DNA from: a bacterium
GTDB taxonomy: Bacteria > Patescibacteriota > Minisyncoccia > JACQLN01
DNA: 64,000 nt
Reading direction: 5' to 3'
Assembly: GCA_030697795.1 (NCBI GenBank)
Contig: JAUYOV010000004.1
Coordinates: 11,831 to 75,830, forward strand
A model generated the notes under the pieces. It was not told where the DNA came from and did no database searches. It saw only the letters and a program-made list of their open reading frames with translations. Of the stretch, positions 168 through 44,670 are shown piece after piece (positions within the stretch are counted from its first letter, which is position 1; the number at the start of each line of letters is the position of its first letter). A program made the position numbers and the translations under genes.

Positions 168-280
168 TTAGTAAGGAAAATAAAAGAAATACGTCTTAAG
201 TTTATCAGTAACGCCTTAATAAAAACAATACCCAGCTTGCCTAGAAAGCTGGGTATTGTTATGCCACGTTTTGCGTGGGT

Positions 281-975
281 CAAGAAAGCCGTAAGCCGAA
301 TTCTGTTCCAATTTTGTTTGAGCAATAGCGAAATTACAAAATTGAGAACCCTGCGAAGCCCGTTAGGGCGAAGTAGGGTAGTCCGCCTTTGCTAAAGCTA
401 CGGCGGATCTCAATTTTTTATCTGTTCGCTACGCTCACAGAAAAAATTGGAGATAATCATCTGTCTGGGATTGTTATTGCTAACAACCTCTGGCGACTCT
501 TCCTTAATAATTTAGATTACTAAGGACACGGTCTTGCACCAAGTGGGGTTTACAACTACCTAGTATTGCTACTAAATAGAATCGCGTTTGACGCGACACT
601 TTTCACCTTTAGACTCAATTTGCATTGAGCTTAGTATAGTCTCTGTTGCATAGGCTCACGGAATCAGCTGTCATCAATGAACCTATATCCAATAAAGGAC
701 ACTTTCCCTGGGCTTGAACCTAATTTTCATTAGATCTGCTCCCGGTTGCATTTCGCAACCACTTGTTTTGCCAATTTAATCTGAGTTTACGAAGCTATTA
801 AATTGAGCACCCTGCGAAGCTTGTTAGAGCGAAGTAGGGCTCCACCGTCGCTAAAGCTATGGTGGATGCTCAACTTTATATTTATTCGCTAAGCTCATAA
901 ATAAAGTTGGCAGGTGTTCGGACTTTCCTCCCCTCGATTACTCTCGGGGCGATTATCTCACTTTCTTGACAATAG
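281..975 (-). ncRNA. rnpB: RNase P RNA (bacterial type A), unusually long (~695 nt) because of two inserted ~115-nt homologous modules
   Basis: On the minus strand: 5' GUCAAGAAAGUGAG...UCGAGGGGAGGAAAGUCCGAACACC (P1/P2/P4 5' strand; compare E. coli GGAGGGGAGGAAAGUCCGGGCUCC) and 3' ACAGAAUUCGGCUUACGGCUUUCUUGACC (compare E. coli ACAGAACCCGGCUUAUCGG). The P1 pairing GUCAAGAAAG/CUUUCUUGAC closes the molecule. No real ORF lies in 170-1000. Confidence 0.7.
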
Positions 976-1006
976 ACATGATAATATTAAAAAAGATAAA
1001 AGTCAA

Positions 1007-1480
1007 TTATAACAAGCTAGCGTTTTTCCCCTTACCATCTAAGGCCTCGTTAACCAATTCATCGGCGCGTTTGTTCTGTTCGCGGGGAATAGATTTAAAA
1101 GATAGTTTTCCGAAATCAAACTTTAAATTCCAAACTTTCATAAAAAGCGCTTGCATTCTTTCTTCGTTAACTTTATATTCCCCACCTAATTGCAAAGCAA
1201 TAAGCTGACTATCCATTCTAAATTCTATATTTAAGTTTTTTGTGCCGTTTTTACCAAAAAGCTGTTTTAGTTTTTTAAGCGCGAAAATCACAGCTTCATA
1301 TTCTGCTTCGTTATTGGTAGAGTCATCCAGAACCTGATTATATTCTTTTATTCTTTTACCAGATTCGTCACAAACCACCACACCCACCGCCGATGGGCCG
1401 GGGTTACCCCTAGAACCTCCATCTGTATAAACAATTACTTTATTAGATTTCATAAAATTAATTCTGCTTGTTGTAATCAA
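1007..1480 (-). CDS. rnhA: Ribonuclease HI
   Basis: VIVYTDGGSRGNPGP...AEYEAVIFAL motifs typical of RNase H type 1. Confidence 0.85.
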   Translation of the reverse strand: MITTSRINFMKSNKVIVYTDGGSRGNPGPSAVGVVVCDESGKRIKEYNQVLDDSTNNEAEYEAVIFALKKLKQLFGKNGTKNLNIEFRMDSQLIALQLGGEYKVNEERMQALFMKVWNLKFDFGKLSFKSIPREQNKRADELVNEALDGKGKNASLL

Positions 1481-3251
1481 TAAGCTTTAATTGTATCTCT
1501 TTATTACCGTTCCATTCGTTAATATCCAACTCATAAACAATATCTAAAGTGTCGCCGATTTTAAAATCTTCAGCAAGCCCAGCTGTGTCGCGTTTGACGC
1601 GATGATTAAAAAATAAAACTGGAAATTCTTTACTTGTTTTTTTATCATGGGCGAAAATTTTCAAATGCTCGGAATTCTTCCCTAAGAAAACAAGTTTTTT
1701 GACTTCAATATTCTTACTTAAAAATTTTGGCTTAAAATTATTCATGCCAAACGGTTCAAACTTTTTAAGTGAATCCATCAAACCCCAATCAATTTCGCCC
1801 AAGTTTATTTCTGCGCTAATTTTTAATTTTTTCTGCAATAACTCTGAAGTTAAAACATTTTTAGCGTATTTATTTAAACCCAATTTTATTTTTTCTGCAT
1901 TAGAAACTTCAAAAGTGCAACCACCGGCCGCAGGATGCCCGCCATACTGTATAAATAAATCTTTAACCGAACCTAAAGCGTCTATTAAATTAAATCCCTC
2001 TATACTACGAAGTGATCCCTTGGCTTTAGTCTCGTCAACACTTTGATAAAGAATTACCGGCCGTTGATAGCGTTCAGCAATTTTAGAAGCCACCAAACCC
2101 AAAAGGTTGACCGACCAATCGGCCGAACCTTCCATAATAAAACTGGGTAATTCTGGATAAGCGTCTATCCGCGAACGGACATCTTTTAAAACTTTCTCTA
2201 CTATCTGCTGGCGCCTACGGTTATTATCGTTGAGCGATAAAACCAATTCATTTATTTTAGATTCGTCGCTACTAGTTAAAAGTTCGTAGGCTAAATTAGC
2301 GTGAGCCATACGGCTGGCCGCGTTAAGGCGCGGGCCTAAAGTAAAACCTAAAGTAAAGCTATCTAAATTAGTAGTAAGGGTTTCTAAGTTATATTTAGCC
2401 TCAACTCCGGCTGACTCCATTAATTTTCTTAGGCCAATTCTTTTGGTTTGAGCCAGAACAATTAAACCATATTTGACCATAACCCTATTTTCATCTAAAA
2501 GCGACACCATATCGGCCACTGTAGCCATAGCCACTAAATCTAAAAGCCATTTTTCTTTACCCTCCGAAGCTTTATGCGTAGGAGGGCTACCTTGAGTTGA
2601 CATCAAAGCACAATAGAGCTTGAACACTAAACCCGCCCCACACAAACCCTTAAACGGATATGTATCGCTTTCTTGATAAGGATTTACAAAAGCCACTGTT
2701 GCTGGGTTTCCTGCCACGGTTTGATGGTGATCTACCACAATCACATCCACACCTTTCTCTTTCGCCCACTCTATTTCTTTAATATTGGTGGTACCGCAAT
2801 CTAAAGTTATTATAAGCTTAGCCCCATTTGAAATTATTGATTCTAAAGCAGTTTGATTAACCCCGTGCCCTTCTTTTTGCCGATCGGGCATATACACCTC
2901 TACTGGATAATTTATGCCTTTAAAATATTCGCCTAAAACCGTGGCTGAACAGACGCCATCTACATCGTAATCAGCGTAGATAACTATTTTTTCCTTGCCC
3001 TGCGAAGCCTTGTGCGAAGCAGGGTTACCATTTATTGCCCGCCTGATTCTCTCACAAGCCTTATCCATATCTTTAAGCAAAAAAGGATCATGCAAACCGC
3101 CATCATATTTTGGATTAAAAAAACTTTCTATTTTTTCTAGCGTATTCAAACCGCGCTCAAACAGCATTTGACTGACCATAGCCGGATACTCCGAAAACTT
3201 AGCTAAAAAATCAGGCCTGGCCTGATCACTAAAAATCCATTTATATTTCAT
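1458..3251 (-). CDS. recJ: Single-stranded-DNA-specific exonuclease RecJ (DHH/DHHA1)
   Basis: DYDVDGVCS and VIVVDHHQ DHH motifs; length 597 aa. Contains two in-frame GC-rich hairpin inserts, both encoding HKAS(Q/E)GKEK. Confidence 0.85.
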   Translation of the reverse strand: MKYKWIFSDQARPDFLAKFSEYPAMVSQMLFERGLNTLEKIESFFNPKYDGGLHDPFLLKDMDKACERIRRAINGNPASHKASQGKEKIVIYADYDVDGVCSATVLGEYFKGINYPVEVYMPDRQKEGHGVNQTALESIISNGAKLIITLDCGTTNIKEIEWAKEKGVDVIVVDHHQTVAGNPATVAFVNPYQESDTYPFKGLCGAGLVFKLYCALMSTQGSPPTHKASEGKEKWLLDLVAMATVADMVSLLDENRVMVKYGLIVLAQTKRIGLRKLMESAGVEAKYNLETLTTNLDSFTLGFTLGPRLNAASRMAHANLAYELLTSSDESKINELVLSLNDNNRRRQQIVEKVLKDVRSRIDAYPELPSFIMEGSADWSVNLLGLVASKIAERYQRPVILYQSVDETKAKGSLRSIEGFNLIDALGSVKDLFIQYGGHPAAGGCTFEVSNAEKIKLGLNKYAKNVLTSELLQKKLKISAEINLGEIDWGLMDSLKKFEPFGMNNFKPKFLSKNIEVKKLVFLGKNSEHLKIFAHDKKTSKEFPVLFFNHRVKRDTAGLAEDFKIGDTLDIVYELDINEWNGNKEIQLKLIDYNKQN

Positions 3252-14806: not shown

Positions 14807-15988
14807 TTAATACTCCCTCAACTTATGAATCCTCTCGTGGCCACGTATTTTGTCTAAGGCTTTCGCTTCTATTTGACGTATGCGTTCGCGAGTTACGCCA
14901 AATTCTTTGCCTACTTCTTCTAAAGTATGCGTCGCCCCATCTTCCAAACCAAAACGCATTTGTAATATTTTTTGTTCGCGGGGCGAAAGATCGTCTATTA
15001 TAGATTTAATTTGATCGCGCAATAACTGTTGAGCTGCCACTTGCGAAGGCAATAAAGTTTTTTCGTCTTCTATAAGTTCGCCCAAAGTGCTGTCTTCATC
15101 GCTATCACCCACTGGCGACTCCAAAGAAACCGCTTCTTGCGTAATTTTTTGAATATGCCTAACTTTGGTTACGTCCATATCCATTTCTTGAGCAATTTCT
15201 TCGGCTAAAGGTTCACGGCCCAAATCTTGAAGCAGTCTTCTTTTAACTTGAGTATATTTAGAAATTGTTTCCACCATATGCACCGGAATACGAATAGTGC
15301 GCGCTTGGTCGGCCAGAGCTCTCGTGACTGCTTGGCGAATCCACCATGTAGCATAAGTAGAAAATTTATAACCCTTAGTATAATCAAATTTTTCTACGGC
15401 TTTAGTTAAACCAATATTTCCTTCTTGAATTAAATCAAGCAAGGTTAAATGCGAACTCCTACCCACGTATTTTTTGGCAATCGAAACCACCAAGCGCAAA
15501 TTCGCTTGGGTTAATTTTTGCCTAGCTTCTTGATCGCCTTTTTCTATTCTTTTAGCAAGTTCAACTTCCTCTGGACCGCGTAAAAGTGGAACCCTGCCTA
15601 TTTCGCGTAAATAAATTTGAACCGAATCAAATAATGGCCCTAAACCTGTATGAGAATCTGATTTTTTTGTTTTTTCTTTGCCGGGTACCAAATTTAACCT
15701 TTCTTGCGCACTGATTATCTTTATGTTTATAGATTCTAAGTGGCGATAAAGATGTTCCAAACCAGAAATATCTTGCTCGATGTTGGGAAAAGTTTGAATA
15801 ATTTCCGATTCGGTAATAAAACCCCGGCTTTTGCCACGCCTAACTAAATCGGCTAGTTTTTCTTCGGTCACAACTGGCACCTTAACTTTAGTTTTTGAGC
15901 GGCGCTTTTTAAACTTAACTCGTTTCTTAGAGATCTTTCTTGGTTTGACTTTTCTTTTGGACTTTTTAGATTTATTTTTTTTTGCCAT
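14807..15988 (-). CDS. rpoD: Primary sigma factor RpoD (sigma-70) with lysine-rich N-terminus
   Basis: Regions 2-4 strongly conserved ([13 protein letters not shown]..., [23 protein letters not shown]). Confidence 0.9.
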
Positions 15989-16023
15989 ATTTTTCTATGA
16001 ATTAAATGAATAGTTAAAAATAT

Positions 16024-16187
16024 GTGTCCGCAGTAGCCTTGCTTGGTTCTTTATCGTTACTTGATAAATGCGGGCGAAGGCGGGCCATAAATTTTTCTAA
16101 ATTTGGATGCAAATTCAGCTAAAAATATGAACACCTGCCGAACCTGCCTGCCGGCAGGCAGGGCTCCTAGGGAGCGAAGGCGGACAT
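16024..16187. repeat. GC-rich inverted-repeat element between dnaG and rpoD with central perfect palindrome CCTGCCTGCCGGCAGGCAGG
   Basis: Ends ATGTGTCCGC...GCGGACAT are inverted; GC far above flanking sequence. Confidence 0.55.
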
Positions 16188-16197
16188 CATAAGTTAG

Positions 16198-17949
16198 CTA
16201 CAAATTTAATAATTTTTGAGTAAGTTCACTAAACTCTATAAGCAAAAGATTCAAAGCCTGGCTGTCGCCATCGGCTTCAGCTTTTTTTATATCGGCTTGA
16301 ATAACTTTAAGCTTGGATTGCAAACTTTGTTTTTTTAAACTAACAAGAGTTCTGGCAAATTCGTCTGCCGGATCTATATTAAAATCGGCTATTAGCTCGC
16401 TCATAGCAATTAAGCGAGAATCAGCCGAGTCCGGAATTTTAGCGTCGTTATTTGCCAGCAGACTTTGGGCCAGCGAAAATAAATTTGGCTGGGAGAATAA
16501 TTCTAGCTCCTCATTGCCAAGGCGGCCTTTTAAGTCTGGATATCTTAGTATTAAAGATAACAGATACTCTTCTTGACGTAAACCCGGCAAATCTTTGGGA
16601 GAAATAATAGCTTTAGATAAAGCAATATTTGGAACCTGCGGTTTTTGATTAAAATCCTGAATAACTAACTGTCTTAACTCTAAATTTAAAACGTCTCTAG
16701 CTATACCGGCCTTGTGAGAAAGTTCTTCCAACCAATAATCCCTATCTAATGGCGAAATAATACTTTTTATAAATGGCAAAACATTGGCTAAAACATTTTT
16801 CTTAGATTCCAAAGTTCCAGAAAAATCTTTTAAAGATCTATTTATAATATGCGCTAAATACGGCACCGGTTTTAAAACCGATTCACTCCAAAGTTTTGGA
16901 TTTTCCTTTACAGTATCGGCCGTGTCTTTGCCCGAAGGAATAGAAACTACCGAAACATTTAAACCCGAAGCTATCGCCATATTAACGCCCTTTTTTAAAG
17001 CACTATCCCCCGCTTCATCGGCATCAAACGCCAACATTAATTTTTCGGTGTATCTTTTTATTATGCGCGCGTGGCTTCCGCCAAAAGCCGTACCACAAGT
17101 AGCCACCACATTTTTTACACCAGCCTGATGCGACATAAGCACATCCATTGTGCCTTCGAGAAGTATACAACCTTCGTTTCTAATATACGTTCTAGATTTA
17201 TCTAAACCATAAAGCGCTTGCGATTTGTCGTATAAAATGGTGCTTGGAGTATTTACATATTTTCCGGCATCTTCGTGCACAGTCTTACCTTTTACTTTTT
17301 CGAAAATTCTGCCCGTAAAGCCAATCACCTGCCCTTGACTATCGGCTATAGGAAACATTATGCGGTGTCTAAACCTATCGTGATATTCACGCGTGGTTTC
17401 GCTTTTTACAGCCAGCCCCGATTTATCTATTTCATCGTTGGTATAACCTTCGGAACTTAAAAAATTATGTAACGATTGCCAAGTATCAGGCGCCCAACCA
17501 ATTCTAAAGTTAGTTAAAGATTCTTTAGTTACTCCTCTTTCTTTTAAATATTCTACTGCCCCTAAACCTGGGCGAGATAATAACTGGCGTTCAAAAAACT
17601 TTGTAGCAAGTTCGCAAACTTCGTAAATTCTTTTTCGTTGCGAGCCTAACTGCACATCTTGATCGCGTTTTATTAATTTAACTCCGGCTTTCTCGGCCAG
17701 CATTTTTAACACATCGTAAAATTCCAAACCCTCCATTTTTTGCACAAAAGAAAAAATGTCTCCTCCTTCACCGCAACCAAAACAATGCCAAATCTGTCGA
17801 GCGGGCGTTACCACAAACGAAGGTGTCTTTTCGTGATGAAAAGGACACGAGCCCTTCCAGTTAGCACCAGCTTTTTGCAACTTTAAATAGCCCTGAATAA
17901 CTTCGGCAATATCTAAACGACTTTTTATGTCTTCAACTTGAGAGGTCAT
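16198..17949 (-). CDS. dnaG: DNA primase; true start MTSQVED rather than the ORF-track start
   Basis: CPFHHEKTPSF zinc-binding motif, TOPRIM region. Confidence 0.9.
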   Translation of the reverse strand: MTSQVEDIKSRLDIAEVIQGYLKLQKAGANWKGSCPFHHEKTPSFVVTPARQIWHCFGCGEGGDIFSFVQKMEGLEFYDVLKMLAEKAGVKLIKRDQDVQLGSQRKRIYEVCELATKFFERQLLSRPGLGAVEYLKERGVTKESLTNFRIGWAPDTWQSLHNFLSSEGYTNDEIDKSGLAVKSETTREYHDRFRHRIMFPIADSQGQVIGFTGRIFEKVKGKTVHEDAGKYVNTPSTILYDKSQALYGLDKSRTYIRNEGCILLEGTMDVLMSHQAGVKNVVATCGTAFGGSHARIIKRYTEKLMLAFDADEAGDSALKKGVNMAIASGLNVSVVSIPSGKDTADTVKENPKLWSESVLKPVPYLAHIINRSLKDFSGTLESKKNVLANVLPFIKSIISPLDRDYWLEELSHKAGIARDVLNLELRQLVIQDFNQKPQVPNIALSKAIISPKDLPGLRQEEYLLSLILRYPDLKGRLGNEELELFSQPNLFSLAQSLLANNDAKIPDSADSRLIAMSELIADFNIDPADEFARTLVSLKKQSLQSKLKVIQADIKKAEADGDSQALNLLLIEFSELTQKLLNL

Positions 17950-18119
17950 GCTGGAATTATGTATCAGAAATCGGGAATTAGGAAGTCTAATTTGACATAA
18001 ATAGCTAATCAAGCACTCTCTTATGTTAAACATCCAGTGTTTAACATTGAGGTACATGATAATCCCTTTCAACTCGCAGACTCTGTTCAGGGTATTTATT
18101 CAACACTTAGTGTTGAATA

Positions 18120-22633: not shown

Positions 22634-22791
22634 ACTTACTAAATTTCGAAATTCGAATATCGAAATCCGAAACCCTACTTCGCTAAAGCTTCGTAGGGCA
22701 CAGCAATATCACTTATTTGGATTTGCTTGCCCGCCGTAGTTTTAACAGAGGCGGGTTTCGAATTTCTGATTTCGTGCTTCGAATTTTATTT

Positions 22792-23653: not shown

Positions 23654-26044
23654 TTAGGAAAAATTTTCTTTGTTTTCCTCTTCTGTGTGTATATCTATAG
23701 CTTCTGGTGGAACTTCTGATTTTACTAAAACCTCTCTAGGTTTAGCCCCTTCACCGGGACCAATCATGCCTTGAGCTTCTAGAATATCGAGTAATCTTGC
23801 GGCGCGGGCGTAGCCGACTCTTAATCGTCTCTGGAGTAAAGAAGCCGAAGCTTTACCAGCCTGCATAATAGCTTCTTTGGCTTGGAGTAAAAGTTCATCT
23901 TCGTCACTAGAATCCATTTTATCAAAACTTACACCGGTAAGTATTGGTCTATGATCTGAGACAGCTTTTTCCAAACCAAGCGCTTCTTCTGGATTAGCAT
24001 CAGGCGCGTCTTCGGGTAGATTAGATCTTATAAACGAAACAACTTTTTTAACTTCTTTTTCCGAAACAAAAGTGCCTTGAATACGTTTGGGCTTGGGCGA
24101 ATCAGAAGTTACAAAAAGCATATCGCCCATGCCTAAAAGTTTTTCGGCGCCAGCCGAATCTATAATTGTCCGTGAATCTATTTGCGAAGCCACCGCAAAA
24201 GCTATGCGCGTGGTAATGTTAGCTTTAATTAAACCCGTAATAACTTCTACCGAGGGCCGCTGTGTGGCTAAAACCAAATGTATGCCCACCGCCCGCGCCA
24301 TCTGCGCTAAACGCACTACTGTAGCTTCTATTTCACGCCCGTAAGTAGACATTAAGTCGGCCAGTTCATCTATAATGATAACCAAATAAGGCATTAAATC
24401 GTCGCCTTTTTTAGCATCAACTTGAGAATTAAAACCGCCAATATCTCTAACTTTTTTTTCGGAAAGCAGGCTATATCTTCTTTCCATTTCTGAAGTCGCC
24501 CATTTTAAAGCCGACACCGCTTTTTTAGGCTCTACTATAACTGGGGTTAAAAGATGCGGAATACCATTATACAAAGTTAATTCAACTCTTTTAGGATCAA
24601 TCATTATAAAGCGTAAAATTTCTGGCGAATGTTGATACAGCAAATTAACAATTAACGAATTTATGGCTACGCTTTTACCCGAACCCGTGGCGCCCGCAAT
24701 AAGCAGATGAGGCATTCTGGTTAAAGCCGACCACATCGACCGGCCAGAAACATCTTTGCCTAAACCAATATTTAAAAAGTTTTTATGCTCCGAAGCCTCA
24801 AAACCCTGAAGCAAAGCTTTTAAACGCACCACCATAGATTTTTGATTGGGTATTTCTATGCCCACTAAAGATTTTCCCGGAATCGGCGCTTCTATTCTTA
24901 AAGATTCTCCGCCTAGGGCTAAAGATAAATCTTTTTGCAAAGCTAATATGCTAGCCAGTTTGACTCCAGTGGCTGGTTTTAAAGTAAACTGGGTTACCGC
25001 AGGGCCAATATTAACTTCCGACATTTCTACCGGAATATTAAAATTCTCTAAAGTTTTCTGAATAATTATGGCATTGCCCTTAATGTCGCCCGTCACCGGC
25101 ATAGAGCCTTCGTCTTCTAATAAATCTAATGGTGGAAATTTATAGTTAACGGAAAGTGGCAACACACTAAATCCGCTCGCCATATTTTCTTGTTTCTTTT
25201 TTGAAACCTCATCTGACTTGGCCATTACTGACGTACCTTGAGGAGAATTTATAGTGACAGTGTCTTCAGCCGGTTTGGGCGCTTCAACTTTTTTAGCGGT
25301 TTGAGGTAGTTTAGCTTTGCTGGCTAACGTTGCAATTTTAGTTACTAAACCTTTTTCTAAAACTAATTTTTTTTCTGGAATCATTTCGCCATTTTCGTCC
25401 GCCTTAAAAACAAATTTTTCTTTTATTTGATCTTTCAAAGGCAAACGAAAAACAATCAACATAGCCGAAAAGAAAAACGCCACAAAAAATATTAAAGAAC
25501 CCCAAAAACCAAACATCTGCCTAAACGGCCAGCCAAAATAATAACCCATTTTACCGCCAGCCTGATTTTGCGAAAATATTTCCATCAAGCCCAAAAAACT
25601 TAAAATTAGAACACTGCCCCCGATTATAGTGGAACCTAATATTTTTTTCTTGTCGGAAGTTAAAATAAAAAACGACATTAAAAACATCGTTAAAGGCACA
25701 AAGAAACTACCGGAACCAAACATATAATCGGCACCGGCTGTAATGGCTTCGGAAAAAGATCCCGACAAGCCAAAGAAAGCTAAGGTAGTTACCAAAGCCA
25801 CAGCCAGCAAAAGAACGCCCACTACGCTTCTTTTAACGCTTGATTCTAAATGGAGCCAAGAAGTTGTTCTTTTTGGCTTTTTTACTTGAGATTTTTTAAG
25901 ATTTTTAATATCCTCCTTTTCTTTTTCAGCAGGCATTAGGTTTAATCTATTACTAGAAAATAATAACATACAAAAAAGCCAAATAACAACAACGTTTTTC
26001 AGGAAGGGCGGTCCTTCCGATAGATTTCCTGCTATTTTTGGCAA
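23654..26044 (-). CDS. ftsK: DNA translocase FtsK/SpoIIIE; true start downstream of the ORF-track start, whose first codons overlap a REP
   Basis: GATGSGKS Walker A, C-terminal gamma wHTH domain, N-terminal TM segments. Confidence 0.9.
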   Translation of the reverse strand: MPKIAGNLSEGPPFLKNVVVIWLFCMLLFSSNRLNLMPAEKEKEDIKNLKKSQVKKPKRTTSWLHLESSVKRSVVGVLLLAVALVTTLAFFGLSGSFSEAITAGADYMFGSGSFFVPLTMFLMSFFILTSDKKKILGSTIIGGSVLILSFLGLMEIFSQNQAGGKMGYYFGWPFRQMFGFWGSLIFFVAFFFSAMLIVFRLPLKDQIKEKFVFKADENGEMIPEKKLVLEKGLVTKIATLASKAKLPQTAKKVEAPKPAEDTVTINSPQGTSVMAKSDEVSKKKQENMASGFSVLPLSVNYKFPPLDLLEDEGSMPVTGDIKGNAIIIQKTLENFNIPVEMSEVNIGPAVTQFTLKPATGVKLASILALQKDLSLALGGESLRIEAPIPGKSLVGIEIPNQKSMVVRLKALLQGFEASEHKNFLNIGLGKDVSGRSMWSALTRMPHLLIAGATGSGKSVAINSLIVNLLYQHSPEILRFIMIDPKRVELTLYNGIPHLLTPVIVEPKKAVSALKWATSEMERRYSLLSEKKVRDIGGFNSQVDAKKGDDLMPYLVIIIDELADLMSTYGREIEATVVRLAQMARAVGIHLVLATQRPSVEVITGLIKANITTRIAFAVASQIDSRTIIDSAGAEKLLGMGDMLFVTSDSPKPKRIQGTFVSEKEVKKVVSFIRSNLPEDAPDANPEEALGLEKAVSDHRPILTGVSFDKMDSSDEDELLLQAKEAIMQAGKASASLLQRRLRVGYARAARLLDILEAQGMIGPGEGAKPREVLVKSEVPPEAIDIHTEEENKENFS
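26000..26032. repeat. REP1 palindrome CAGGAAGGGCGGTCCTTCCGATAGATTTCCTGC at the 3' end of RAYT-1
   Basis: Further copies at 26526-26542 (inside RAYT-1), 26735-26750, 59691-59722; related sequence inside the helicase CDS at 12909-12941. Confidence 0.8.
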
Positions 26045-26706
26045 TCTTTATAGGAAAGCCAATCAAGAATAAAATCATCAAAGTCCTTTACACCGTCGAA
26101 ATAATCTGGAAAAGCTTTTTTGTTGATAATTTTTTGCTCTAATCTTTGAACACCTACATAATCAAGATAACTGGAATAATTATAACCATTTAAAAAATTT
26201 TGGGCCGCTAATTTATTTTTAATACCAGTTTCTTTCCAGTTAGGTTCAATCAACTTAATAGAATTTAAGTGTGTATAGGCAAAAATATATTTCAGATATT
26301 CATCTCTTTCAATATGTTTTGCTTGAAACCTTCCCTGAAATAAAGAACCGCTACGATCATGTCTTTTATTGAAATACATGGAATAACCGGTGGATACTTT
26401 TCCCATAAATTTAGAGAGTCCACCTTCTACAGTTTCTCTTGCAAGTAAATGGAAATGATTCGGCATTAATACATGTGCGCCTAAAGCAGTAATATCATCG
26501 CCAGTATTTACATCAAAAATATCTGGGAAGGACCGCCCTTCCAAAAGAAGCTCATTGATATCTACACGGTCATTGTTATTACAAAGATAAAGGAGCATCA
26601 AAAAACGTCTATATTCGCCTGTAGATTCAAATATAGTCCTCTTATCCACACCTCGATTGTAGATATGATAATATTCCCCTACAGAGAAAGTGAATTTACG
26701 TTGCAT
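26032..26706 (-). CDS. REP-associated tyrosine transposase (RAYT; IS200-like HuH Y1 transposase), copy 1
   Basis: GEYYHIYNRGV, HuH motif LMPNHFHLL, catalytic-Tyr helix region; flanked by REP1 palindromes. Confidence 0.7.
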   Translation of the reverse strand: MQRKFTFSVGEYYHIYNRGVDKRTIFESTGEYRRFLMLLYLCNNNDRVDINELLLEGRSFPDIFDVNTGDDITALGAHVLMPNHFHLLARETVEGGLSKFMGKVSTGYSMYFNKRHDRSGSLFQGRFQAKHIERDEYLKYIFAYTHLNSIKLIEPNWKETGIKNKLAAQNFLNGYNYSSYLDYVGVQRLEQKIINKKAFPDYFDGVKDFDDFILDWLSYKDCQK

Positions 26707-27017: not shown

Positions 27018-27123
27018 TCCGCGGTAACTCAGAGTGCTGACTTAAGGGCCGCAAGCCCCGGCCGGTTAGAGTGCCTAGCTGATAACTAGGAGGTCGTTGG
27101 TTCGAATCCAACCCGCGGAGCCA
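27018..27123 (+). tRNA. tRNA-Ile (anticodon GAT) carrying a ~31-nt hairpin insertion in the D-loop
   Basis: Acceptor TCCGCGG/CCGCGGA, D-stem ACTC/GAGT, anticodon arm CCTAG-CTGATAA-CTAGG, T-arm GTTGG-TTCGAAT-CCAAC, G73-CCA. Insert 27033-27063 AGTGCTGACTTAAGGGCCGCAAGCCCCGGCC. Confidence 0.5.
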
Positions 27124-34734: not shown

Positions 34735-35391
34735 ATGAGAAAAACAATTTTGGCCGAAGGCGAATATTATCATATCTATAATCGTGGTGTAGAGAAAAGA
34801 AACATATTTTTAAACGATAACGATAAGTGGCGATTTATGACCCTCTTACTAATATTTCAAGGCAAGGGTCATATTGATAATATGCAACGTATTGTTAAAC
34901 TTGTTCAACATTCAATGTTGAACAAAGAACCATTTGACGACATCCTTTTGAATAAAAAGGTTGAACTGATATGTTTCTGTCTGATGCCAAATCATTATCA
35001 CCTTATATTAAAAGAAATTAAAAATGGAGGAATTTCTAGTTTTGGGCAAAGATTAGGTAACAGTTATACAAAATATTTCAACACTAAATATAAACGCACT
35101 GGACACTTATTTGGTGGAAGATTTCAAACGGTTCACATAACTCAAAATACATATCTCAAACATTTATCTTCTTATATACACAATAATCTAACAGAACTAA
35201 ATAATTGGAAAAAATTGGAAAACGAATATTTTTGGTCAAGTCTGCCAGATTATGTAAATAAAAACCGATGGGATAAGTTTCTAAACCCGGAAATAATTCT
35301 AAACCAGTTTAGGGGTAAAAATGATTATCTAAATTACATCAAAAATAATCGAAACAAAATTAAAAAACTAGATGGTTACTATATAGATTAA
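34735..35391 (+). CDS. REP-associated tyrosine transposase (RAYT), copy 2
   Basis: GEYYHIYNRGV, LMPNHYHLIL HuH motif; paralog of 26032..26706. Confidence 0.7.
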   Translation: MRKTILAEGEYYHIYNRGVEKRNIFLNDNDKWRFMTLLLIFQGKGHIDNMQRIVKLVQHSMLNKEPFDDILLNKKVELICFCLMPNHYHLILKEIKNGGISSFGQRLGNSYTKYFNTKYKRTGHLFGGRFQTVHITQNTYLKHLSSYIHNNLTELNNWKKLENEYFWSSLPDYVNKNRWDKFLNPEIILNQFRGKNDYLNYIKNNRNKIKKLDGYYID

Positions 35392-44100: not shown

Positions 44101-44541
44101 CTAGACTCTACGCGGTTTAGGCGGTTTAGGACCATTGTGTGGCACCGGAGTTACGTCTTTTATAGAAGTAACATTTAAGCCCTGTCCCACCAAAGCCCTA
44201 ACGGCGGACTCCCTACCCGAACCAATGCCTTTAACAAAAACCACCACATCCTTTAAGCCAACCTTTTTCATTTTTTCTCCCAAAGTTTCGATTATTCTAT
44301 TAGCAGCGTATGGTGTAGCTTTTCTTGGACCCTTAAAACCCAAAGCACCGGCCGAAGATTGAGCAATTAAATTTCCCCCGGCATCTGTAAAACTAACTAA
44401 AGTATTATTGTAACTAGCTTGAATATAAACTCTACCCTTTTCTACAGCGCCAACTTTACGGCTCTGTACTGGAGCCACTTTAGCTTCGCTAGAAGCCTCA
44501 CCTGTTTTATCTTCTTTTTCTATAATTCTTTTTTTACCCAT
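44101..44541 (-). CDS. rpsK: 30S ribosomal protein S11
   Basis: Conserved S11 core. Confidence 0.9.
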   Translation of the reverse strand: MGKKRIIEKEDKTGEASSEAKVAPVQSRKVGAVEKGRVYIQASYNNTLVSFTDAGGNLIAQSSAGALGFKGPRKATPYAANRIIETLGEKMKKVGLKDVVVFVKGIGSGRESAVRALVGQGLNVTSIKDVTPVPHNGPKPPKPRRV

Positions 44542-44670
44542 CCTTCGCTCCTCGCTTCGCTCAGAGCTACGGATGGCAAGCCATCTTTTTTACTGAAGGA
44601 ATCCAATAGCCTTTTGTGGCGAAGGATGTCCTTCCGTAGCTTTAGCGAAGGAGGACTACATTAATTAATT

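Follow-up and report, generated by a model that had tools for sequence, protein, structure and literature searches.

Homologous four-hairpin cassettes at two outer positions of an RNase P RNA gene in a Patescibacteria genome

The RNase P RNA gene (rnpB) on the 64-kb stretch of DNA analyzed here (the window) has a conserved core of about 409 nt, which is interrupted at two outer positions by paralogous four-hairpin cassettes. These insertions leave the gene about 280 nt overlong. The tRNA-trimming RNA enzyme that it encodes is a textbook example of a conserved ribozyme, and its bacterial forms usually measure 330-450 nt. Our best explanation, to which we assign a probability of roughly 0.55, is that the insertions are laterally exchanged cassettes of hairpin repeats which would be kept in the mature RNA as tolerated outer domains.

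At the Rfam gathering thresholds the 64-kb window yields two tRNAs only. Under an E-value threshold, the bacterial RNase P RNA model RF00010 matched the minus strand at 68.1 bits (E 2e-20), below its gathering score of 100 bits, in a local alignment of 399-739 that misplaces P1 and P4 because the model cannot bridge the inserts. Orthologs whose cores are 69-98% identical to that of the window reach the gathering score (L126 with 149.7, L121 with 116.9, L125 with 112.9, L157 with 112.8 and L132 with 103.6 bits). Genes carrying a cassette between P5 and P7 (site 1) were all recorded below this score, and orthologs with site 1 empty reach it. Since the failure is confined to genes with a site 1 cassette and orthologs pass, the shortfall of the window gene is an insertion penalty. 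In addition to P1-P4 (Table 1), helices P5, P7, P8, P9, P12, P13, P14, P15-17 and P18 were found in order on the minus strand. The conserved class A P4 pseudoknot sequences GGAAAGUCC and ACAGAAnnCGGCUUA are present at 930..916 and 306..292, and P4 (GUCCGAA/UUCGGCU) covaries with respect to the Rfam consensus GUCCGGg/CCCGGCU. The specificity-domain motifs J11/12 (ACAGAGA) and J12/13 (GGUGAAAAG) align to the RF00010 model, and the MFE fold of the entire 706-nt stretch contains P1 and P2 (z = -9.3). A promoter-like site ends 8 nt upstream of P1, which puts the transcript start at about 970. The gene order PGK-RecJ-RNase H-rnpB-DUF4012 is kept in relatives. Homologs of the window RecJ assign the organism to Patescibacteria/Parcubacteria.

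Judged by its sequence, 970..279 of the minus strand is a genuine bacterial class A RNase P RNA gene of 692 nt. The original prediction, made from the letters of the window, had named RNase P RNA on the strength of matched P4 strands, and both the identification and the strands hold up: RF00010 matches, orthologs reach its gathering score, P1, P2 and P3 accompany P4, and P4 is the same in 12 genes. The prediction was also right that the gene is overlong, with its extent of about 695 nt at 281-975 now replaced by 970..279. Its strand had to be reversed, as gene and modules lie on the minus strand and the hairpin it quoted is the antisense reading of cassette hairpin H2.

Table 1. Features of the window (positions counted from its first letter).
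Feature	Position	Strand	Remarks
RNase P RNA gene (rnpB)	279..970	minus	692 nt; ~409 nt minus both cassettes; RF00010 match, P1-P18 sequence mapping, ortholog alignment
P1	970-961 / 288-279	minus	sequence reading
P2	959-951 / 458-450	minus	sequence reading
P3	949-930	minus	sequence reading
J3/4 and P4 5' strand GAGGAAAGUCCGAAC	916..930	minus	same in 12/12 related rnpB genes; pairs with 306..292
P4 3' strand ACAGAAUUCGGCUUA	292..306	minus	same in 12/12 related rnpB genes
Cassette copy 1, type A, 140 nt	771..910	minus	between P5 5' strand 916..913 and P7 5' strand 764..759; P5.1 position
Copy 1 hairpins	H1 909..871, H2 866..841, H3 839..810, H4 805..772	minus	
Cassette copy 2, type A, 143 nt	308..450	minus	between P2 3' strand 458..450 and P4 3' strand 306..292; P19 position
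Copy 2 hairpins	H1 449..411, H2 407..382, H3 378..349, H4 344..309	minus	
Promoter-like site TTGACT-17-TATCAT	978..1006	minus	10/12 consensus positions; consensus match only
Intrinsic-terminator-like hairpin, 15 bp, then U run	224..260	minus	19 nt past P1 3' strand
Unit hairpin GCCCUCC-UACGC-AUAAA-GCUUC-GGAGGGU	2559..2587	minus	in-frame, variable loop of recJ
Unit hairpin CCCUGC-UUCGC-ACAAG-GCUUC-GCAGGG	2998..3024	minus	in-frame in recJ, 10-aa insert; 7/8 aligned RecJ orthologs without insert
Diverged type-A-like element: H1, H2 with expanded tip, short H4	15985..16106	plus	spacer between sigma-factor gene and dnaG; R1 35.8 bits, E about 3e-6 (rough)
Unit hairpin CCCUAC-UUCGC-UAAA-GCUUC-GUAGGG	22673..22698	plus	spacer upstream of recA
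RAYT-like Y1 transposase gene	26032..26706	minus	
RAYT-like Y1 transposase gene	34735..35391	plus	
Two unit hairpins	44541..44670		rpsM-rpsK spacer

The two cassettes, which we call type A, score 142.9 bits (copy 1) and 170.9 bits (copy 2) with R1, a covariance model for this type. MAFFT pairs 465..330 with 922..786 of the minus strand in long invariant blocks, a repeat search splits the copy pair into three co-linear direct repeats, and a module pattern of 27 specified bases matches the two cassettes only in 64 kb (shuffle expectation 0.00). On all three counts the two homologous inserted modules that had been predicted exist. The spans first given for them, 336-455 and 792-912, fall almost wholly inside the true modules; these extend over 308-450 and 771-910 and thus measure 143 and 140 nt instead of about 115. 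Identity over the aligned module is 79.1%, where about 70% had been estimated. The covarying hairpins that had been quoted occur exactly on the plus strand, as TCCGCC-TTTGCTAAAGCTAC-GGCGGA at 382-407 and TCCACC-GTCGCTAAAGCTAT-GGTGGA at 841-866, where H2 is read in antisense and shows a G-C to A-U double change.

By their boundaries against the core helices, cassette 1 occupies the P5.1 position (flanked by P5 and P7) and cassette 2 the P19 position (flanked by P2 and P4), and neither is in the P12/P15-18 periphery expected at first; P12 is a third hot spot in relatives only. The helix positions follow PMC12974513 and the type B secondary structure. Cassette 1 is flanked by the P5 5' strand CACC and the P7 5' strand AAGUGG, and relatives have a hairpin of about 20 nt there instead. 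Presence and absence of cassettes are clean-edged in the ortholog alignment, and in one relative (L044) Infernal aligns the cassette at the P19 position as a single insertion. The cassette ends CCAAUUUU...AAAAUUGG are inverted repeats with the termini CCAAYUUU...AAAUUGG. No target-site duplication was found at either window insertion, the flanks being CACCUG|...|CAAAAC and UAUCU|...|AACAG.

The fold of type A was examined in an alignment of eight distinct copies, two from the window, two from L129 and one each from L044, L121, L153 and L157. RNAalifold together with explicit pair counting gives a layout of H1, a short helix J enclosing H2 and H3, and then H4. In this tandem-hairpin fold 95.7% of the cells are paired and 15 pairs are altered on both sides. 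None of 500 shuffles attained these values, and controls with slid partners were 35-45% paired. Covarying pairs make up 7 of 13 in H1 and 4 of 9 in H4. Between the two window copies there are eight compensatory double substitutions, one broken pair and no one-sided changes, in line with the stem covariation first claimed; a ninth double change, in helix J, was noted by eye. The hairpin fold of the cassette appears to be under selection. A nested fold with a closing helix, obtained as a single-sequence MFE structure, was rejected: it is 84-88% paired, with breaks and little covariation, whereas tandem H1 and H4 are 97-98% paired.

Loops and internal loops of type A are unchanged in the eight copies. 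The tip of H1 (GAGC..GCGAA) is complementary to the loop of H4 (UUCGC..GCUC) in every copy (-7 to -18 kcal/mol, where shuffled loops give -4.5). At one pair of the contact the bases vary as C-G, U-A and U-G; this covariation is weak, and pairing within a cassette and between cassettes is alike possible. H3 contains an invariant A-C mismatch that corresponds to a G-U pair on the opposite strand, and counts of G-U versus A-C in the eight copies discriminate no strand of function. A conserved kissing-loop bridge between cassettes of different types was also considered. The type A H2 loop AGCUUUAGCGAA and a type C loop UUCGCUAAAGCU of L121 are complementary over 12 nt, but the corresponding tips in L153 are closed tetraloop hairpins, and the window has no partner loop for such a contact.

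The comparison covers 12 related rnpB genes only. Three hot spots are seen, the P5.1 position (site 1), the tip of P12 (site 2) and P19 (site 3), and about five cassette kinds occupy them in versions of the gene that reach 690-790 nt (Table 2). At least one cassette of more than 70 nt at P12 or a flanking site is found in 11 of the 12 sampled genes; L125 has only an 82-nt type B, and L169 and L126 have short hairpins only at sites 1 and 3.

Table 2. Cassette kinds at three sites of 12 related rnpB genes, by core clade (-, none).
Gene	Core clade	Site 1	Site 2	Site 3
Window	alpha	A	-	A
L044	alpha	-	X1	A
L121	alpha	-	C	A
L125	beta	-	-	B
L153	beta	A	C	-
L126	gamma	-	C	-
L127	gamma	B	X2	-
L130	gamma	B	X1	A'
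L157	gamma	-	D	A
L169	gamma	-	X2	-
L129	alone	A	C	A
L132	alone	D'	D	D

Genes with cores 94-98% identical carry different cassettes. L153 and L125, with cores 97% identical, have the combinations A,C,- and -,-,B, and the five gamma genes, at 94-96% core identity, show five different combinations. The converse is also found: L157 and L129 share 95.9% identity in their site 3 cassettes and 72.4% in their cores, and the nearest relatives of L157 (cores 96% identical) have only a 21-nt hairpin at this site; for L153 and L129 at site 1 the figures are 91% (cassettes) and 78% (cores). Types B, C and D each occur at more than one site. Type B, for example, occupies site 3 of L125 and site 1 of both L127 and L130, with 100% identity over 47 nt. 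R1 scores the P12 type C of L129 at 41.5 bits in antisense versus 19 bits, over a match that spans H1 and H2, and type C is by this measure an inverted half-cassette. The site 3 occupant of L130 is a diverged type A (R1 47.6 bits). A distribution of this kind, which does not track the core phylogeny, is the signature one would expect of lateral exchange with occasional re-insertion, not of vertical descent alone. Site 3 cassettes are conserved at least as well as the core (96.5% versus 90.5% from the window to L121, and 85.9% versus 78.1% to L129). Purifying selection for a function, as opposed to recent spread, could be the cause, and the numbers fit either alike.

In the window and every locus examined, R1 scores of 143-173 bits come from rnpB copies only. 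Full-length type A was seen in rnpB only in the DNA examined, unlike a typical dispersed transposable element. Diverged relatives of full layout do occur elsewhere, one in the window (Table 1) and one between two tRNA genes at locus L142. H2 and H3 share the structure of a unit hairpin: a 6-bp stem, UUCGC, a variable tip, GCUUC and the closing stem, with a symmetric UUC/UUC internal loop. H2 is this unit in reverse orientation, and sub-hairpins occur in both orientations. Both are probably instances of a short hairpin repeat, stem-UUCGC-tip-GCUUC-stem, that is also present in recJ and in spacers. Strict matches to the unit number 5 in 64 kb versus 0.56 in mononucleotide shuffles, and there are about ten unit hairpins altogether.

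A metagenome scan with H3 gave 35 loci. Five of these hold a full type A cassette, in three distinct sequences (L144/L146, L153 and L157) and always within rnpB. Two more, of identical sequence (L139/L159), have an antisense H3-type hairpin within rnpB of an unrelated lineage, as does L102, and the remaining 28 have the hairpin alone in varied contexts. The pattern ACTTCGC N7-15 GCTTCGCAGGG proved too loose for genome contigs: its 120 rows are mostly chance, with about ten real hairpins and one real relative (L044). The window spacer upstream of recA matches a portion of what is inserted at P12 in L130. The viral contigs searched gave no match, and Rfam families hit the cassette at chance level only (nqrA-II and ctRNA_pGA1, E 6-8).

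In the exchange-and-retention reading favored here, the ribozyme transcript would include the cassettes, and the mature RNA would keep them as outer domains that fold on their own, probably pointing away from the tRNA-binding face so that catalysis is undisturbed. We infer retention because the cassettes lack both a long closing duplex that RNase III could cut and any signature of an intron or ribozyme. Spread would have taken place at the DNA level. Where a cassette is replaced at its own site, DNA that has been taken up may recombine homologously through the core flanks, which are highly conserved. A change of site or an inversion would reflect a rarer insertion. The original prediction had called the module mobile, and comparison supports the word: cassettes differ among genes of 94-98% core identity, a 96% identical cassette sits in 72% identical cores, and there are shifts of site, an inversion and relatives outside rnpB, from all of which we infer movement. 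A benefit of the cassettes to RNase P is possible and is unneeded to explain the data, and the near-identical cores that do without a given cassette argue against a required role.

Adaptive outer domains are the alternative we take most seriously, though we consider it unlikely. In an RNase P RNA that has lost other tertiary struts, the cassettes would then stiffen the fold or serve as a binding site for a protein, the different kinds being interchangeable answers to one structural need. Conservation equal to or above that of the core, invariant loops and internal loops in eight copies, H1-H4 complementarity in every copy, and the presence of a cassette of more than 70 nt in 11 of the 12 genes all speak for this, and known outer expansions such as P5.1 do stabilize RNase P RNA (PMC12974513). 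However, cores 94-98% identical bear anything from none to three cassettes of various kinds, so that no single cassette or site is required. One kind is inverted, sub-hairpins in both orientations also occur in coding sequence and spacers, which is hard to fit to one specific tertiary contact, and the type A-type C loop complementarity is gone in L153. A purely vertical history, in which an ancient intragenic duplication carried the P19 expansion to J5/7 and differential loss and divergence followed without lateral exchange, seems to us improbable. Two old orthologous lineages would indeed fit the C-G pair in helix J and the shorter H2-H3 linker shared by all three site 1 copies, against A-U in all five site 3 copies. 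The window copy at site 1, however, is at 75% identity no nearer to its counterparts at that site than to copies from site 3 (79-81%), types B, C and D change sites, and the near-identical site 3 cassettes of L157 and L129, in distant cores and with a mere hairpin in the closest relatives of L157, are cassette-core incongruence that refutes descent of this kind.

Removal after transcription, as with intervening sequences cut from rRNA by RNase III, would give a functional RNase P RNA in fragments or a ligated shorter one. Introns and insertions abound in CPR rRNA and tRNA genes (PMC8172020), the 23S gene of L138 holds three group I introns, and a strand break would be tolerable at all three sites. 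Even so we rate excision as very unlikely: within 150-1100 no group I or II intron or self-cleaving ribozyme was matched in Rfam at E up to 10, an autocatalytic intron would not fit into 140 nt, and the closing helix that RNase III would use is unsupported next to the tandem hairpins. An assembly artefact or a decaying pseudogene might be suspected in a metagenome-assembled genome whose gene scores below the Rfam gathering value, and is extremely improbable. The copies differ at 21% of positions, almost all in compensatory pairs, and so are no collapsed or duplicated repeat; L129, an independent assembly, has the same A..A arrangement; and all catalytic-core motifs are intact, synteny is kept, and promoter-like and terminator-like sites are present. 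A bolder reading, which we regard as doubtful, has the cassettes as exchangeable self-folding modules that target RNase P RNA, home to three permissive rnpB junctions, possibly through an RNA intermediate or site-specific recombination, and substitute for one another in function. This would be a natural modular remodeling of an essential ribozyme, and its products, at about 690-790 nt, would be the largest RNase P RNAs known from bacteria.

If exchange with retention is right, parts of an essential ribozyme behave like exchangeable modules, and a short hairpin repeat, which in this reduced genome also enters proteins in-frame, is tied to the expansion of an RNA gene. The related genes form a natural insertion and deletion series which may show what parts of the ribozyme tolerate large additions, and they offer a test case for the origin of RNA expansion segments, be it as selfish repeats or as functional struts. 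They also explain why standard covariance models miss rnpB in many CPR genomes, the J5/7 insertion costing more than 30 bits.

The literature searched gave no description of a single RNase P RNA with homologous multi-hairpin cassettes at several sites, or of cassette exchange between genes, and nothing relevant on the motif sequences or on palindromic elements in RNase P RNA or Patescibacteria. With class A RNase P RNA and its CPR forms the window gene has in common P1-P5, P7-P15 and P18, the P4 sequence, J11/12 and J12/13. The excerpts of Lui et al. 2021 (PMC8172020) report CPR RNase P RNAs with large helix extensions and scores under the Rfam cut-offs, and a score below the cut-off together with large extensions is found in the window too. 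Those excerpts deal with extended or missing helices, whereas the window has two paralogous 140-nt multi-hairpin cassettes, in J5/7 and J2/4; repeated homologous modules or exchange are not described in them. P19 is variable in length and stacks on P2, and P5.1-type expansions sit away from the tRNA interface (PMC12974513). The window cassettes occupy the same secondary-structure positions, where cassette-free relatives have a simple hairpin each. In known forms P19 and P5.1 are single helices, and P5.1 of type B docks on P15.1/P18.0 as a tertiary bridge; the window has four hairpins (about 140 nt) of homologous sequence at both.

Among mobile palindromes, REP/RAYT elements and MITEs come to mind, as these are also short imperfect palindromes, the cassette ends are inverted repeats, and the window contains two RAYT-like genes. 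In two relatives, L126 and L157, a RAYT-like gene adjoins rnpB. Both RAYT-like genes of the window are flanked by hairpins of their own, GGAAGGGCGGTCCTTCC and GTTCAACATTCAATGTTGAAC, unrelated to the cassette, and since these hairpins differ, no mobilizing enzyme can be tied to the cassettes. The cassettes also differ from such elements in having no target-site duplication and no GTAG head outside the stem.

Rickettsia palindromic elements are closer in behavior. R. felis has 728 copies, 85 of them in ORFs and 3 in RNA genes (PMC1166351). The likeness, small palindromic repeats in-frame in ORFs and in RNA genes of a reduced genome, is an analogy of behavior and holds for the unit hairpins only. 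A sequence relation is not claimed, the phylum is another, type A reaches high scores only in rnpB, and copy number is low, at about ten unit hairpins in the 64-kb window.

A further precedent is the STRR repeats that heterocyst-forming cyanobacteria have in their RNase P RNA gene (Vioque 1997, as cited in PMC2858038). There, a genome-wide repeat family has reportedly likewise entered a variable rnpB helix and is carried in the RNA gene. STRR repeats are reportedly short tandem heptamers and located in P12, whereas the insertions described here are composite hairpins at three sites that appear to be exchanged in the manner of cassettes.

Two rnpB genes of lineages unrelated to the studied Parcubacteria clade (loci L102 and L139) hold in their P12 region a unit hairpin, the same kind of short repeat as H2 and H3 of the rnpB cassette, in antisense orientation (CCCUGCGAAGC...GCGAAGUAGGG). 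Entry of this repeat into rnpB therefore extends beyond the clade. In Zambryskibacteria (L138/L077), three group I introns interrupt the 23S rRNA gene, and the intervening DNA that separates 23S model positions 2284 and 2655 contains one unit hairpin. Protein-coding sequence also carries the repeat: two unit hairpins are inserted within recJ of the window. The insert encoded by one of them, NGNPASHKAS, is absent in seven of eight aligned RecJ orthologues; one resembling it occurs at the identical position in P0010.

Coordinates of the features discussed here (window positions, unless a locus is named)
Feature	Position	Strand	Remarks
recJ	1458..3251	minus	
Unit hairpin in recJ	2559-2587	minus	in-frame; encodes variable SPPTHKASEGK loop
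Unit hairpin in recJ	2998-3024	minus	in-frame; encodes NGNPASHKAS
Sigma-70-like gene, one flank of 15985-16190 spacer	14807..15988	minus	
Diverged rnpB-cassette relative and further hairpins	15985-16190	+	35.8 bits with CM R1, the type A cassette model
dnaG, other flank of 15985-16190 spacer	16198..18072	minus	
Spacer upstream of recA	22642-22757		unit hairpins, both orientations
RAYT/IS200-like Y1 transposase homologue	26032-26706	minus	
Second tRNA match of window	27049-27119	+	30.1 bits, barely above gathering score of 29
RAYT/IS200-like Y1 transposase homologue	34735-35391	+	
rpsM-rpsK spacer	44541-44670		unit hairpins, both orientations
rnpB of unrelated lineage	L102:7288-7676		normal-size RNase P RNA
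rnpB of unrelated lineage	L139:8879-9265		normal-size RNase P RNA

Spacers of the window also contain such elements. In the one next to dnaG, the cassette relative precedes more GC-rich hairpins, which end in GCGAAGGCGGAC. Part of the P12 insert of a related rnpB (L130) matches AT-rich window positions 22645-22673 (93% over 29 nt). Five separate metagenome contigs (L134, L149, L155, L160, L162) are nearly identical over ~160 nt around an H3-type hairpin, reading GCCUUUGCUAGAGGCAACGGC ... CCCUACUUCGCCCAACACCGGGCUUCGCAGGGCAAGCC. No Rfam match was obtained for L134 at gathering thresholds, and this stretch may represent a conserved RNA or a repeat that has yet to be described.

Both Y1 transposase homologues of the window are 32-35% identical to the Y1_Tnp adjoining rnpB in L126. 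Each gene has its own hairpin on either side (GGAAGGGCGGTCCTTCC for the minus-strand copy, GTTCAACATTCAATGTTGAAC for the plus-strand copy), and with these flanking hairpins the RAYT-like genes look like REPtron-type units.

The rnpB core combines class A and class B features, with hairpins resembling P10.1 and P5.1, and with P15-17 formed by a simple hairpin. Two additional hairpins at window 704-649 (minus), present in all clade members, are placed between GGGAAAGUG (the P10/11 5' strand) and GCAACAGAGA, a position resembling that of P10.1 in type B RNAs. The Infernal RF00010 alignment of the window misassigned P4 to this stretch.

Just upstream of rnpB, between it and the RNase H gene, a gene with a PaaX_M domain is present in four related loci (L121, L127, L130, L169) and also matches Cas2 weakly in L127 and L130; a small gene precedes it in L121, L127 and L169. 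The window has neither gene. In its second tRNA match the acceptor and D stems contain mismatches, and this tRNA may be unusual or degenerate.
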